Assembly: GCA_044356455.1 (NCBI GenBank)
Contig: JBIKWF010000042.1
Span: forward strand, 1-32,934
Direction of reading: 5' to 3'
DNA: 32,934 bases
Source of the DNA: Bdellovibrionota bacterium
GTDB lineage: Bacteria; Bdellovibrionota_C; UBA2361; JBGSMV01
Below are positions 6,001 through 24,000 of the stretch, piece after piece. Within the stretch, counting starts at the first letter, position 1. Every line of letters starts with the position of its first letter. Position numbers: made by a program.

Positions 6001-9000
6001 CAAGATTGAGCAGAGTATCGATGTCGACATGGCTCAGCGCACCTCCCTCTTGGCCCGGTAGCGCCGCAAGGCGAATCTCAACAACTGGAGACGTGGGCGT
6101 GAAACTGCGAGGGGTGCCGATAAAAAATAGATTAAGTGACAGAGCGAGAACTATCCCGGCTAACGTGGCAAGCCGCCAAGAATATGATCTCGATTTCATG
6201 TCGCTCTATGCGTCCTAAGGGGGAAACAGGCGTGAGGCCAAGTACTCCCTGATTATACCCCTTTAAGATGCAATTCGCGCGAGGTCCTCTTCTTTATAAA
6301 AGCCCTCTTTAAAGAGCATCTTCTCCAATGATTTCGAGACATTAGGGACTAATACTACTCTCCTAGTACCCGCTGCACGACACTAAGACTGGTCCCCGCG
6401 GCCACAACCTTCCCATTAGGATCCAAGACGAATAGTGCAGGGAGGCTATCCACGCCAAAGGCAACCTTAGCTTCGTCGTATACGCCATTACCCGAGTAAG
6501 AATGCTGCAAACCATCAAGCTTCCCATACGTGATGCGATCTTGGAGCTTGGGCAAGTCCTCGGCTTTATCAATGCTCACCGCAAGAAACACGATATCTTT
6601 GCGTGATGCGTTACGCTTCGCATACGCATTGAGTTCATTTACTACCGTATGCGACTGATTACATGAATTCGCCCAGAACAAGACCACCACGTTTTTCCCG
6701 CGAAGATGCTCAAGCACCAAGCGATCGCCTTCAAGCATATAGAAGGAGGTATAGGGGGGACTTTGATTCCCTAGAAGGGATGAACTTCCTGCCCCGGCAC
6801 ACCCTGAAAGCCCCACACTACTGGCCAAGCCCAAGCAAAGGAGCGCCTTAATAACATTCTTTCTCATACGAGATAATCTCCAACTGTCCTCAGGGAGTAC
6901 TCATCCCCTGAAACGATATAGATCACTTTTCGAAAATGCGCACAGTGCCAGATATGTGAACGGTGCGCGGACGGTGGCAGATTGCCTTTAACTAATTGGT
7001 AGCTACTGATTAGCTGAGCGCTCGCGGATCATCCAGAAAGTGTCTTTGTAGGCTTGCTTCACCTCGGGGTCGGTCTCACGCTCAAAATTATCGATTATTA
7101 TTCTTAGCGCGCCGACGTCATTAAATCCCTCAAGGGCCTTTACCGCAAGCAGGCGAGCCCCCTTATCCTTGTGCCCCAGCATGCCGAGGAGCGTGCCCAG
7201 GTTAAGAGACTTTGGATACTTCTCAAGCACCAATTTGGTAAGAAACGGATCGTTTGATTGCACCAGCAGCGAAATGAGTTTTGGATCCTTAAGGACCGGC
7301 TCAAAAACACGGAAGGCTTCCCTCGCATCTTCATCAGGCACTTTGGAAAGATTCCCAAAGACCCCGATCGCATGGGCATATTTTACGCGGTTCTCCCAAG
7401 CATTACGCCGCACCCACTCCGCGAGCCCGGCACTAGGCTGAATACGCAAAGACTTTCCGACAAGCGTATCAAAGGCTTCGAGCAGCAACGCCTCGTCTTT
7501 CAGGTCTGCGCACATGAGAAGCAAAATGCGTTCAACTTCGACATCGAACCAGCGGCCGATAGCCCCAATATCCTCTGAAGTAAGGGATCCAGCTGCCGCT
7601 TTTACCAAGGCGTTGAGAACTTCTGGAGGAACATCTTGCCTATCGCGAACAATCGCTAAGTAATCCTGCCGGACGCCGGGGAGAATGCCTCTTTCGACAG
7701 CAAGGCTTGCAAAGGCACGCACGTTGTAATCGTTGCGTGTTCCCAAAACATCAAGTAACCAAAGCACGTCAGCATCAGGAAGCTCACTACGGCGCTGCAC
7801 CACGTCATCGCCAAACACGAGCGCCAACTCGGGGTGCACAAGAATGAGCCCAAGTGCAGATTTATCTGCCGCGGTCTCTAGCGCGAGCGAGTCTCCCACT
7901 AATTGGGCAAGGAGCGGTTGATATTCATTGACGTTTTGAGAATCAAGCGCGATTGAAGCCGCCATTCTTAAGGTCATGCGCGGATCGCTCACGTAGGCCT
8001 TGCGTAGTTCAGTTTGACGGGCCTCCAGGGGCAAGGTTGCGTTTAAAGACTTCATCAAGGGCTCATAGGCTGCGGGCACCACGCCCGATGGAATGGTGCG
8101 TAGCCATTGGTTTAGTTGCTCGGCGCTCCGCAGCATGCCAAGCCTTCGCACCCGCTGCACTAATGACTTCTCAGCAAGACCTCTTAGCTCGGGGGTCTTC
8201 GCGTCAAGGGAGCTCTTTACCAAAGCGACGTGTGCAAGAGGATCGTCAGAGGCCACAAGCTGATCAAATTGGGCGGCAGCTTGCACGAGCTGCGTCTGAC
8301 TATCTCCGATGGCGTCAACGGCCTTCTGGATCTCAGGATTTCCGCTGAGGGCGTCAGGCCGAGGAAGGCTTTCCTTATGCTCATCCTCGGGAGCTGAAGA
8401 GCGCGACGTGAGCTGAGCTCCGACGACTGCGGACACGATGAAAACAGCGACCACGGCGATGAGGAGCCGCATGCGCGAAAGCAGTCCGACTGGTGACGCT
8501 TCCTCCGTAGTGGACGAAGAAGTCGTCGCAGGCTGACCCACCGCGGTGCCGCGAATCATCCCACTAGAACGTACTCCTGTAGTAGCAGGACTTGCCGCGG
8601 CGGCAGTGGATTTTGTGGGAGTAGCCGCGGCCTTCTTTGAAGGAAGCCCGGCACCCGAAAAAGCCTTCTGGCGAGCTTCTGCGATTCCTTTGAGCAACTC
8701 CGCCGCTGAAGGATAACGATCCTTGGGATCAGAGCCCAAGCAGCGCATGAGCACCTCATCTGCCCAAAGCGGAGCACCTGGGACTAAATCAGAGAGCGGA
8801 AGAATCGGAGCGCCGGCGCCTCCAGGCCCCCCACCCTCTCCGAACGGAGATTTTCCAGAAAACAAATAGTAGCCAAGAACGCCGAGCGCAAAGACATCCG
8901 AGGCTGGCTCAAGCACTCCGCCATATTGCTCTGGCGCGACGTAGCGCACCGTCTCTAAAGAAGGAAGCATAGAGGTCGCTTGAGCGTCAGCATCAAACGC

Positions 9001-21000: not shown

Positions 21001-24000
21001 CCTGCGCGCCTCTTGATACGAACCGCCCTGTGAAGCGGGGTGGGACGCTGGCGCAATTGGCGAAGAACGCGGTCTATCCGGCGGCGCTTCAACGGCAGGC
21101 CTGCGCGGCGATGCCGAGACGAAGCCACCACTTGAGCGCCCTGCATCAGGCATTCCTGAAAGCGCGGGAGAAGGGTCGAGCTCTTTAGCCAGACGCGCCC
21201 GCACTTGACCTGTTATCTCTGGGGTCAGCATCACGGTGCGGTTACGAGCCCTAGGAGCATGTTCGACTTCTGCTTCCGCCTCATCACCGCCTTCGTCCCC
21301 GAATTCGAGGTTCTTATCATTGTCCATGGATTCGCTCCTCAAAACCTATCAACGTACCTACTGACCAACCCCAAACGTCATGACCCCTACTACGGTAAGC
21401 AGGGCCGCCAATACGGACAGCACCGCCACAATCGCAAGAGTACGCCACAAACTTCTTCCTGAATTCGCTTGATTCGCGCGAGGCCGCTTGCGCTCGAGCG
21501 CTTTGCGCGGATCGTACCCCGCAGGCGGCTCTTGTTTCAGTTGTCCGCCAAGGGGAATAATCGCTACTGAGATATTATCGTAACCCCCACGCGCCTTCGC
21601 GAGTTCAACGAGTTTTACGCATGCGCCTTGCGGAGTGTCATCGGTCACAATAGTCGCAACTTCGGTCTCGCTTACTTGACTATAGAGGCCATCAGTACAA
21701 AGCACTAAGAGATCCGGCGTTTCACCAGCCGTCGTTTCGCAGACCCAGTACTGCTGCAAGGAAACTTCAAGCGCTGGTTCGGATCCGATAGCCCGGGTGA
21801 GAATGTGCGCTTGAGGATGCGCAAGCGCCTCCTCAGGCTTGATGTGCCCTTTCTCGACCAGTTCTTGCACATACGTATGATCGGTAGTGAGCTGCTGAAT
21901 CGCTCCATCGCGAATAAGATACGCGCGAGAATCGCCGACATGCGCGATGACCACCTCGGGGCCATCAAACATAGCCCCCACAATGGTGGTGCCCATTTGA
22001 GCAAACGCTTGATTTTGGCGGCGAAGTACAATGACTCGGTTCGCTTCAAGGACCGCGTTCCTTAAGGCCTCTTCCGCCGGACGCGGGGGTAAATTCTCAA
22101 GATCGCGGCGAATGGCATCAATCGCAAGTTGCGCAGCGAGTTCTCCCCCAGTGGCGCCGCCCATGCCGTCGCAGACAAGCCACGCGAGCCCAGAGGGGGA
22201 CTCAACCACGGCGTAGCGGTCTTCATTGAGGTCGCGCTCACATCCCGTATCGGTGATGGCCGCGGGGATGCTGCGGTCGCCCGCCTCCCCATCCGTCCCC
22301 CGTTTCTCCGTCTGCCCGAGCAACATGCCTCGCCCCTTTAAGAAATGTTCCTAGAAAAGCGCTCTCCACTCCTTGAAGCTACGTTCCTAGTCCCCCTCGC
22401 AATTCAGTTCTCAACGCCCTAGATGAAAAGCTCTAAGATCCCGGCAAAGAGCCCTTAGGAACTCCCACTTCAAAGCGTTTCAAGAGGTTATGCGAAATTT
22501 CGCACCTCTCCCCAAAAGAGGTGTCGGCACACTACGAGAAATTCTTCACCCCTCAATCCCACAAATACCTAAAGAAAATGATGTTTTGGCGATGCGGCGC
22601 CTTAAAATCTCCCCTATTCCGTCTTCCCCACGGGACGCAGCTCAAAAAGAAACTCCCTGCTCTCAGGGGTAAGGCGAGATTCAAAGCCCTGCTTCGCAAT
22701 CCAGCTGGCAAGTTCGACCCAGCCTTCTTTGTGTAAGGTATATTCTTGCCACTTATCTCCACGGTGCTCGCGCAAGGGAAACCCCGCATCCGTCCATTTC
22801 TTCTTAATATTTTGAAATCGCCCACCGACCACACTTCGCAGCCGTGACAGGGACTCAACCCCAGTCCACTCCCCGCGGCTCACCGCAGCGGGCGCCTCCG
22901 CGGCCACCCCCACGGAGCATCTAAGAGCCTCGACGAACTCCGCAACCAGTGCAGGCTCACGCTCGCGCAGGGCGTGCTGCACGGAGCGCACCATTACTTC
23001 CTCAAGCTGCTCATCGATGAGACGCGCGACTTCTGCATCAAGCGCGCCTTCAGTCATTGTTTTTTTCATAAGTCCCCTACACTCACGGTCGCAAAACTCC
23101 CTTGAAAGAACTCACCCAGCCGTTGCTCCCGACAAGGCCTGCATCTCTGCCACAAGACGCGCGCGTCCTACAGGCTTCGCTAAGAAATTGCTGGCACCTG
23201 CCTGCTGCACCTGCACGCGCACATCCTCAGCAACATTCCCGCTCACTACAATAATCGGCAAATCCTTACCGAAGCGCTCGCGCAGCGTGCGCACCACATC
23301 AAGTCCGGTCTCTTCACCAAGCTGCAAGTCACTGATTACAAAACGCGGCTGCCCCTCGCGCTCTACGATACTTAAGGCTTCTGTCACGGAGGCTGCGGTA
23401 AAGAACGGAATGGTGAGGGCTTCTGCGATGCGCCCGTAAAAAGTGGTAACCTGGGGATTATCATCTACGAATAAGGCCCATTTTCCCCGTGCGGCGCGTT
23501 TTGGCGCTGCGAGGATACCTCGCGGCAGCGACATCACCAGGCGCGATCGGTAGGGCGCATCTGCCGGCCTAACTTCAAAGGCCCCGGCACAGAGTTCTGC
23601 GAAACGGCGCACCGCACTGAGCGCCGAAGATTCATGCTCTCGCTCTCCCTGCCCATCTCGAAAGCGTTCCCTCTCTTCCTTAAACTGAAGCGCCCCTTCA
23701 CCAAACCCGAGAAACTCGAAGACGACAACATCGTCATTCGCTCGGCAGAACACCTTGACTTCTGCCGGAGTAAGGACTTCTCCCAAGCTCTCCTTAAAGA
23801 GAGCGCGCAAACATGTTTCGAGAAACTCTCTACTCGTAACCTTCACCGCCACCGCTTGGCCTACCTCGGCCTCGATCGCGCACCGCATACCCCGACGCTT
23901 CGAGCGGTAATCCGCAAAGGCGCGCAGGTCTTCAACGATGGGAAGAATCGAAACGATGTCGGTCCTTGAGAAACTTCCAATGCGGAGGAGCTCATTGAGC

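Follow-up and report, generated by a model that had tools for sequence, protein, structure and literature searches.

The window analysed here is a 32,934-nucleotide stretch of DNA (contig JBIKWF010000042.1) from an uncultured member of the Bdellovibrionota. As claimed in a preliminary description, it carries a row of eleven co-directional ORFs on the minus strand (positions 7003-22326), and the identities proposed for them were confirmed. The row opens with a PP2C-type Ser/Thr phosphatase bearing one C-terminal membrane helix (21358..22326; PF13672; NF033484, 228.9 bits; hydropathy peak at residues 297-315), an FHA-domain protein with a low-complexity N-terminus and a C-terminal FHA domain, kept across row loci (20548..21342; PF00498, E 3e-4), and a PknB-like membrane Ser/Thr kinase (18833..20494; PF00069, E 5e-52; membrane helix 478-496). 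These are followed by TadZ/CpaE, a MinD/ParA-like ATPase with a deviant Walker A motif and 55-91% identity class-wide (17457..18758; AAA_31, TIGR03815), a 63-aa Flp pilin (16940..17131), CpaB/RcpC (15590..16471; TIGR03177 above cut-off, PF16976), a TadA/CpaF ATPase with Walker A and B motifs (13855..15402; PF00437), TadB (12872..13843; PF00482) and TadC (11884..12813; PF00482). TadA carries no FHA fusion and in a tree falls into a class-specific lineage. The pilin has the Flp motif reported earlier, and its PF04964 score of 28.4 bits lies just below the Pfam cut-off of 32.2; with it, the Tad/Flp core set (Flp, TadA, TadB, TadC, TadZ and RcpC/CpaB) is complete. From tadC to the first start codon of the next gene there are 106 bases. 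That gene encodes SctV-A, a non-flagellar FHIPEP export-gate subunit identified by family profiles, trees and proton-path residues (9606..11777), and the row closes with a membrane pseudokinase (7003..9495).

In the pseudokinase, the catalytic Lys, Arg, Asn and DFG-Asp positions are replaced across 34 homologues. Its model (pLDDT 84) has a kinase fold that matches PknA/PknB, one membrane helix, and a C-terminal helical solenoid, predicted to be periplasmic, for which HEAT-like leads below 0.9 were obtained. Non-coding stretches of 325 and 468 bases border the flp gene, and because of these long gaps the row may comprise more than one transcript; a promoter/terminator scan gave promoters not above chance (6 found vs 8.5 expected). 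Up to four tandem copies of flp are present in other orders of the class. Two minus-strand ORFs border the row. Upstream, a 151-aa ORF (22614..23069) has no Pfam or NCBIfam match and its homologues lie upstream of the row in many loci; its membership is uncertain. Behind the pseudokinase, a thioredoxin-like lipoprotein (6355..6867; PF13905) occupies the slot of the FHA-sctJ block of unbroken arrays, and is probably a passenger.

No secretin was found in the row, in agreement with the preliminary description. This genome (G000) has two, PilQ and GspD, and among 35 genomes two were found in 30, one in 4 and three in 1, all but one in frames of at least 649 aa. A dedicated RcpA/CpaC, KilC-type or SctC secretin was found neither in the row nor in the genome, by a search that a very diverged pore would escape. 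One A24 prepilin peptidase, PilD-sized, lies on contig C138, eight TadE matches lie on six other contigs, and tandem pilin-like ORFs are present on C203, C62, C169, C122 and C19. A second Tad locus, on C19, could be the user of the TadE clusters.

Conservation of the Tad-T3SS array

The reported presence of tadC beside sctV could be extended. Forty loci of the order were chosen from 83 matches; in 38 of them sctV has tadC upstream and co-directional, and the other two are cut by contig ends. Of 17 genomes from other orders of the class, 16 likewise have tadC before sctV. By coordinates the two genes are also adjacent in two f27 family genomes, whose SctV has diverged strongly. The pseudokinase gene, likewise said to flank sctV, lies downstream of it in 36 of the 40 loci (three cut, one replaced). 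Thirteen genomes were read downstream: in nine, the genes from the Tad set or from sctV onwards follow one another without a break at least as far as sctR, and in three more as far as sctQ. Past the pseudokinase the array runs through two FHA genes, which add to the one in the row, then sctJ, sctQ and sctR(STU). Members of this genome's order mostly have the array broken behind the pseudokinase gene; in other orders of the class and in G020 the row carries on with the full export and basal core. The proposed hard-wired link thus has more support than was known when it was put forward. These shared, unbroken rows suggest that the Tad pilus motor and the T3SS gate work as one machine, although gene order as such indicates shared history and regulation, not physical contact.

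Alternatively, an operon and a kinase switch could be common to a pilus for adhesion and a reduced export apparatus that are physically independent. The split of the array in most order members, the unlinked sctN and the gaps around flp would fit such an arrangement. We consider it rather unlikely, since the gate gene sctV is the only T3SS gene that never leaves the Tad genes, even where the rest has moved, since neither half has its own outward conduit, and since in the only known pairing of Tad with a T3SS the two co-localise and show functional dependence (PMC12075869).

The arrangement had also been reported from three of the 80 nearest SctV loci in other species. All three proved to belong to the order, and the supposed reach into other species falls: L178 is 100% identical to G084 over 13,475 bases, L115 agrees with G012:C556 in length and coordinates, and L116 is nearest to genus g31, at 62-65%. 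Spread beyond the class was rejected. At the other 77 loci no Tad genes were detected within the examined flank, and among 1.84 billion representatives the identity of the best TadA relatives falls from 55-85% to 38% or less. No description of a class-wide Tad-T3SS array was found in the literature searched.

Identity and lineage of the export gate

SctV-A (723 aa) matches FHIPEP with an E value of 4e-174 and scores higher with the hrcV profile (557.9 bits) than with FlhA (514.9 bits), both below cut-offs. Its assignment as non-flagellar was confirmed, as was its 33-34% identity to the genome's own FlhA; Yersinia LcrD is 51% identical over residues 25-295 (tblastn). Judging from the length of its orthologues, about 700 aa, the true start may be the second methionine. 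Proton-path residues were taken from 10.64898/2026.06.13.732081 and transferred to SctV-A by spacing. Eight of the ten positions are identical in all 48 SctV-A sequences of the order, and the remaining two in 47 and 43 of the 48 (the latter with five Asp-to-Glu changes). The cytoplasmic domain is only 20-31% conserved. In family f27 SctV-A has nearly decayed, which, together with a truncated SctU, would also fit relaxed function.

In quick, single-gene trees with long branches and SH-aLRT supports only, SctV-A fell inside the non-flagellar clade (99-100) and outside the myxobacterial plus classical clade (96-98). Joining it to long-locus SctV or to all myxobacterial SctVs was rejected (AU p 0.027 and 0.030). 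Many near-duplicates, and seven rows that were very long or came from redundant lineages, are not in the 58- and 37-row trees. SctV-A and SctV-B were joined at 0.87 in one tree, and their relationship was open or they stood apart in two others. Both SctV sets persist in genomes lacking a flagellar FlhA/FliP match, e.g. G008, G009, G010, G097, G101 and G111.

These data bear on two other possible origins of SctV-A, recruitment on its own as a Tad accessory or recent duplication of flagellar FlhA. In this genome sctV is the only T3SS gene in the row, and SctVs from outside score better by BLAST with the genome's FlhA than with SctV-A. However, in other genomes the Tad genes and the T3SS core (sctJ, sctQ, sctRSTU) form one unbroken array, so that sctV is not a lone accessory, SctV-A has non-flagellar motif states, and a clade with the class's own FlhA was rejected (AU p 1.6e-5). 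Either origin is extremely improbable.

The reduced T3SS core and a second system

The preliminary description had placed the partner sctRSTU set on contig C127. This was wrong; the partner is the set on C95, whose SctR groups with all array SctRs (SH-aLRT 99). The C127 set was ruled out as partner by the arrays, by the SctR tree and by the neighbourhood of a gene for a 73-aa protein, which lies less than 5 kb upstream of a divergent sctR in 23 of 32 cases. The earlier T3SS inventory was also incomplete, lacking a second non-flagellar SctV with SctJ (C7), a second SctR set and the second Tad locus. The C127 set probably belongs to this second non-flagellar T3SS; by elimination, C127-type sctR and sctN may go with it, their neighbourhoods having been read to 1.5 kb at most. 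In G080, a C95-type sctRSTU set lies two genes from the second system.

The core SctR, S, T, U, V, J and Q is present without flagellum-specific genes, and the Tad-linked core also keeps an SctO-like stalk and a TPR chaperone. SctU is 224-275 aa long and lacks the NPxH motif and the autocleaved switch domain in all eight copies read. The sctL-sctN pair stands alone, its position tying it to neither system, and in the order there is one non-flagellar copy for two gates; sctN was not detected in 3 of 35 genomes (G008, G009 and G025, 82-97% complete). A 447-aa double-FHA protein, considered for the SctD position, ends at its membrane helix, with no periplasmic part seen. In the array loci examined there was no match to the class's needle/rod-like profile for the needle subunit SctF. 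The label "needle-less" fits the Tad-linked system, but may not fit the second one, which has a weak SctF-like ORF. Besides needle/rod-like ORFs, the second system comprises a sigma factor before sctJ, FliO and a stand-alone FlhB C-domain. No candidate effector gene was identified.

The 73-aa protein is encoded at the FliG/SctK position, and its gene is present in 93 of 96 genomes. Its model is a confident four-helix fold (pLDDT 94), with a best fold match of Z 5.3 and none clear; it may resemble the FliG N-domain. The idea that it is a needle or rod found no support in Pfam, PDB sequences or the Atlas, none of which gave a match. In the Myxococcaceae long locus, the gene that lies between sctJ and sctL has an N-terminus to which it shows a weak match, at E <0.01 in 9 of 121 genomes. 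An 85-aa ORF before the TPR gene had no PDB match.

A core so reduced might serve the pilus without exporting effectors. It could be a scaffold or an aid to the motor, driven by protons; it could export components of the pilus or the periplasm; or it could sense assembly and pass the signal to the kinase switch. Array loci without a needle-like gene, an SctU without its switch domain, the three genomes without a detected SctN, the missing effector candidates and the poorly conserved SctV cytoplasmic domain would all suit this role. The retention of SctR, S, T, U, V, J and Q, the stalk and the chaperone, as an export channel would need, argues against it. Furthermore, Flp pilins normally reach the membrane without T3SS-type help. 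We regard a purely pilus-serving core as quite improbable.

Comparison with known systems and a proposed mode of action

In Myxococcus, T3SS* is brought by Kil to the sites of contact with prey, and of the four Tips three depend on T3SS* (PMC12075869). Kil and T3SS* have separate loci, yet a single complex has been proposed for them, with pilus tips in place of the needle (PMC12075869, PMC12428579); Kil is accompanied by FHA proteins (PMC8460266). The array described here shares with M. xanthus Kil and T3SS* (MXAN_2434-2464) a Tad core, a T3SS export/sorting core that lacks secretin and translocon, FHA proteins, clusters of putative minor pilins at scattered sites and, weakly, a small domain after sctJ. 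It differs in being a single array, in lacking the FHA-fused KilF and the short secretin, in having an unlinked sctN and a truncated SctU where T3SS* has its own sctN and full SctU, and in its dedicated kinase, phosphatase and pseudokinase. SctV and TadA here also belong to other lineages. TadA is 27-30% identical to the FHA-fused KilF-type ATPases and forms a separate clade; the FHA domain of three myxobacterial/Bradymonadia ATPases is absent from it.

The suggestion that the locus is a counterpart of Kil/T3SS* stands as an analogy only: when orthology to Myxococcus T3SS* was checked by a tree, SctV-A formed no clade with long-locus SctV, TadA lies in another clade and a KilC-type secretin is missing. 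A predation weapon homologous by descent to Kil and T3SS* would draw on the same missing parts (secretin, translocon), the weak match of the 73-aa gene to the Myxococcaceae long locus, the FHA-rich context and the presence of predators in related phyla (PMC13200544). The position of SctV-A outside the myxobacterial plus classical clade (with the caveat of long branches), the distance of TadA from KilF, and the closer resemblance in gene content of the second system, rather than the Tad-linked one, to the long locus make such descent improbable. By analogy, the Tad-T3SS array may work like Kil and T3SS* as a separate, deep lineage.

With the 'long' and 'short' non-flagellar T3SS of Myxococcales (PMC3459982), the two systems of this class share the presence of two secretin-less systems per genome, vertically kept and branching before classical injectisomes (Abby and Rocha 2012). 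They differ in branching outside both in the present trees, in being scattered over several loci and in having a truncated or split SctU.

On balance, we lean towards the row being the front half of an ancestral, class-wide array for one coupled, kinase-switched pilus-export machine. The machine would combine TadZ, Flp, CpaB, TadA, TadB and TadC with a reduced T3SS (SctV, SctRSTU, SctJ, SctQ, the SctO-like stalk, the 73-aa protein and the TPR chaperone), and a Ser/Thr kinase, a phosphatase, a pseudokinase and three FHA proteins of its own would switch it. The kinase/pseudokinase would read a signal from a surface or a contact, and the FHA adaptors would recruit both halves to one inner-membrane site. 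The proton-driven gate would then move substrates into the periplasm without needle or substrate switch, and the Flp pilus, with TadE/G-type triplets from other loci at its tip, would carry or push them out of the cell, either by way of a secretin borrowed from another system (PilQ or GspD) or through a pore that has escaped recognition. That no dedicated secretin was found for the exit speaks against a coupled machine. The target would most likely be another cell. A prey bacterium is plausible, at clearly less than even chances, a eukaryotic host or other partner being the remaining options. A bolder version, in which the Flp pilus and TadA motor of a secretin-free, contact-triggered, kinase-fired hybrid replaced the needle, and in some lineages SctN, of a non-flagellar T3SS that is among the deepest-branching known, making the whole class contact-dependent predators or parasites by a route independent of Myxococcus, seems doubtful to us.

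How Kil and T3SS* join in Myxococcus is an open question, for which a one-array lineage gives a minimal parts list, with the pseudokinase, the FHA adaptors, CpaB and the 73-aa protein as candidate linkers. Two deep, vertically kept, secretin-less branches are added to the flagellum-to-injectisome history, with natural gates that lack a switch domain and may lack an ATPase as well, and a Tad system without its own secretin. The array is also a first lifestyle clue for this uncultured class.

Compared with canonical Tad/Cpa systems (Aggregatibacter, Caulobacter, and the Kil-like system of Bdellovibrio bacteriovorus), Flp, CpaB, TadZ, TadA, TadB and TadC are present in the usual order, whereas the RcpA/CpaC secretin, TadV and TadD are absent from the row, the pseudopilins lie elsewhere and T3SS genes follow tadC. 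A precedent for combining Tad and T3SS parts exists in rhizobia, whose T3SS acquired its secretin, RhcC2, from a Tad locus (PMC3459982). In that case one Tad secretin became part of an injectisome with a needle, whereas here the pilus motor joined and both secretins are absent.

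The Tad-sctV gene row and its conservation

Analysis with Pfam and NCBIfam models bore out the row of eleven co-directional genes claimed in the preliminary description. All are on the minus strand, and from 22326 to 7003 they encode a PP2C phosphatase, an FHA protein, a Ser/Thr kinase, TadZ/CpaE, an Flp pilin, CpaB, TadA, TadB, TadC, an FHIPEP protein and a protein with a weak kinase match. The FHIPEP protein, here termed SctV-A, scored higher with the SctV than with the FlhA model of NCBIfam (both below the cut-off), and shares 33-34% identity with the flagellar FlhA of the same genome (G000). 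Comparison of 34 homologues revealed that, in the product of the last gene, the positions that we take to be the catalytic Lys, the HRD Arg, the loop Asn and the DFG Asp are all substituted; judged by these motifs, it is a pseudokinase. Its predicted structure combines a PknA/PknB-like fold with a single membrane helix and a helical solenoid.

Behind the row, the same strand (137-6199) encodes a protein of 2020 aa in which a reprolysin-like metallopeptidase domain is combined with fibronectin III and Ig domains. Upstream of the row (23112-29201) are genes for response-regulator proteins and for two activators of the sigma-54 type, one of them degenerate. Between 29632 and 32210 lie genes for a cobalamin adenosyltransferase, for signal peptidase I and for a protein of 381 aa that carries RTX calcium-binding repeats. 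In two families, the PP2C gene has a flagellar fliL-fliR operon one gene upstream of it (L056:458-4935 in G011; L058:421-4875 in G014).

Among the matches listed, SctV-A-type proteins occur in 83 of the 91 genomes of the order UBA2361, and SctV-B, a second non-flagellar gate, in 83 of 91. In 40 SctV-A loci picked to span the genera of the order, tadC precedes sctV in 38 (the other two are cut), and the pseudokinase gene follows it in 36 (three cut, one replaced). In 25 of the 28 sufficiently long loci, the row opens with two or all three of the signalling genes; they are absent from G003, G006 and G010. In the other orders of the class, tadC adjoins sctV in 16 of 17 genomes (one cut); in an eighteenth, G096, sctV and the pseudokinase gene are preceded by ORFs that BLAST did not recognize. 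SctV-A initially seemed to be missing from family f27, where a profile search detected a strongly diverged copy in four of five genomes. By coordinates it lies directly behind the Tad genes in both genomes checked (G104:C1:69991-70263 and G107:C2:99066-99320); ∼90 residues match the class profile, and the ORF itself persists at its position behind tadC.

A phylum-level search retrieved only genomes of the same class, and no Tad-sctV linkage was found outside it, in a search whose scope excluded Bdellovibrio and Oligoflexia genomes. The three of 80 loci with Tad genes beside sctV that had been ascribed to other species are in fact members of the order. We conclude that the Tad-T3SS gene array is real and class-wide.

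Continuation of the array and related gene sets

For 13 genomes in which the pseudokinase gene is followed by an FHA gene, the downstream region was read. The order is FHA, FHA, sctJ, a 73-77-aa ORF, a SctO/FliJ-like ORF, sctQ, sctR, sctS, sctT, sctU, a small ORF and a TPR gene. The row reaches sctR or further in nine genomes (one of this order, G020) and sctQ in three, and breaks earlier in one; four further genomes of the order showed no continuation. The array of G000 is split among three contigs: C184 (the window), C24 and C95. The SctR of C95 clusters with every array SctR (SH-aLRT 99) and that of C127 falls outside, which refutes the proposal that the C127 sctRSTU set is the partner of SctV-A. 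The 73-aa gene is present in 93 of 96 genomes, and is located <5 kb upstream of a divergent sctR in 23 of 32. The usual state in the order is thus a split after the pseudokinase gene, with sctV staying with the Tad genes. A counter-example is G080, in which a C95-type set lies two genes from the second non-flagellar T3SS (system B). Independent, co-regulated machines might be read from such a split; with sctV remaining beside tadC, we consider this improbable.

G000 carries three FHIPEP, three FliP-family, three YscJ/FliF and two FliI/SctN genes, and two secretins (PilQ and GspD), the flagellar set being on C110 and C16. The earlier inventory was incomplete: it lacked SctV-B with SctJ and SctQ on C7, the other sctRSTU set, on C95, and, on C19 (L006:3480-11860), a second Tad locus that has no secretin. 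Four more CpaB paralogues (two on C79, one each on C121 and C156) and a solitary Flp pilin on C174 were also observed (L008, L009, L010 and L011). Minor pilin genes of the TadE/TadG type, arranged in tandem and with C-termini that are large and variable, are clustered on five contigs other than the window's, among them C203:6249-10845, C62:6754-10506, C169:34904-36703 and C122:46980-49683; they may resemble Kil Tip triplets. On C16 (L336:8213-10677) and in G076 (L363), fliH directly follows fliF with no fliG in between, only this junction having been inspected.

In the C127 locus (L003:3693-13377), the genes for FliO and SctRST are followed by one for a SctU truncated after 272 aa. Next come genes for a GAF histidine kinase (1162 aa), an FlhB C-domain (91 aa) and an FHA protein; the kinase gene separates the two halves of SctU.

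Descent and relation to Kil/T3SS*

Kil and T3SS* of Myxococcus are in separate loci, and their co-occurrence has been described as confined to Cystobacterineae (PMC12428579); long and short T3SS loci branch early, and a rhizobial secretin is Tad-derived (PMC3459982); and FliO occurs in myxobacterial systems (PMC12403147). The Kil features used for comparison are from PMC8460266. The larger Archangium locus, chosen by size and content (PMC10196010), was taken as the T3SS* equivalent.

In three SctV trees (112, 58 and 37 rows; two mixture-model, one FastTree), two class-wide clades, one of SctV-A and one of SctV-B, lie within the non-flagellar branch (support 0.985, 100 and 99). The branch that unites myxobacterial and classical SctVs to the exclusion of both had a support of 98 and 96 in the mixture-model trees, but only 0.385 with FastTree. 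AU tests rejected a clade of SctV-A and the long locus of Cystobacterineae (p 0.027) and one of SctV-A and nine myxobacterial-type SctVs (p 0.030); both rejections are only moderate, because the trees were built quickly from one gene and have long branches. Grouping with the class's FlhA was rejected as well (p 1.6e-5). TadA shares 27% identity with the FHA-fused ATPases of the KilF type; it belongs to a separate, long-branched clade that also includes the second Tad locus and other relatives.

One feature links the array to T3SS* and would favor true homology with Kil/T3SS*: the 73-aa profile gave weak matches in 9 of 121 Myxococcota genomes, and the single match that was inspected falls on the N-terminus of the long-locus gene between sctJ and sctL. 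The long locus, however, is more like system B than like the array: both have a sigma factor before sctJ and needle/rod-like small ORFs, to which FliO and a stand-alone FlhB C-domain can be added provided that C127 is part of system B. With the trees, this makes homology unlikely, and we conclude that the array is analogous to Kil/T3SS*, yet no member thereof.

A class-only profile of small ORFs such as that of system B (L001:10868-11191, C7) retrieved 12 PDB sequences, all needle subunits or fusions thereof, with weak E values (0.011-0.48). It also matched three to five small ORFs of Archangium and Corallococcus long loci (L332:5219-6469 and 12403-13074; L185:5452-6561) with E values of 4e-9 to 7e-8. 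T3SS*, called 'needle-less', may encode SctF/SctI-like subunits.

FHIPEP genes are present in 110 of the 121 Myxococcota genomes sampled. The restriction of the pair to Cystobacterineae is already loose, since in a Lujinxingiaceae genome (G094; L118, L379) a non-flagellar SctV occurs together with a KilF-type ATPase that is fused to FHA. Kil-like Tad systems were reported in up to 81% of Bdellovibrionota genomes, in a set including this class, with type III secretion unmentioned in the accessible part of that paper (PMC13200544); the Tad genes described here may already figure in its Table S3. Our literature search found no paper on a Tad-T3SS array; the name UBA2361 itself occurs in published papers.

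Export gate, absent parts and a possible coupled machine

Ten residues are named in 10.64898/2026.06.13.732081 as the FlhA proton path and charge ring; their counterparts in SctV-A were located from spacing and residue type, without recourse to the Salmonella sequence. All 48 SctV-A sequences of the order agree at eight of these positions, 47 at one and 43 at another (five Asp-to-Glu substitutions). Of 16 sequences from other orders, 13-16 retain each of nine positions, and a single one retains the tenth (Q254). As judged from the kept residues, the SctV-A gate is intact. Both SctV-A and SctV-B are retained in genomes without a flagellar FlhA or FliP match.

SctU ends after the membrane domain, without a cleavage motif, in 8 of 8 copies, and no needle-like ORF was found in the array loci. 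The number of secretins is two in 30 of 35 genomes, one in four and three in one; none lies in the row. The sctL-sctN genes form a stand-alone pair. FliI/SctN matches in 18 genomes of the order number two in 14, one in G010 and none in G008, G009 and G025 (completeness 94%, 97% and 82%); in the other orders, 12 of 17 genomes have three. The three genomes without a match keep export-gate genes, the ATPase search yielding only F1 alpha/beta and Rho-sized matches; G025 also lacks SctV-B. A helper role without export seems to us very unlikely.

Gene content, linkage, joint retention, the intact gate and the missing conduit lead us to favor, by a modest degree, a coupled pilus-export machine. By analogy with the mechanism proposed for Kil/T3SS*, on which ours is modelled, and where Tips may replace the needle (PMC12075869), the kinase and the pseudokinase would sense contact, and FHA adaptors would bring the Tad platform and the type III core to one site. 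The proton-driven gate would then pass substrates into the periplasm, and an Flp pilus with TadE/G-type tips would take them outward via a borrowed or unrecognised pore. Predation on bacteria is a tentative suggestion for its use. Some genomes of the class are 1.7-1.9 Mb, a size also compatible with host dependence.
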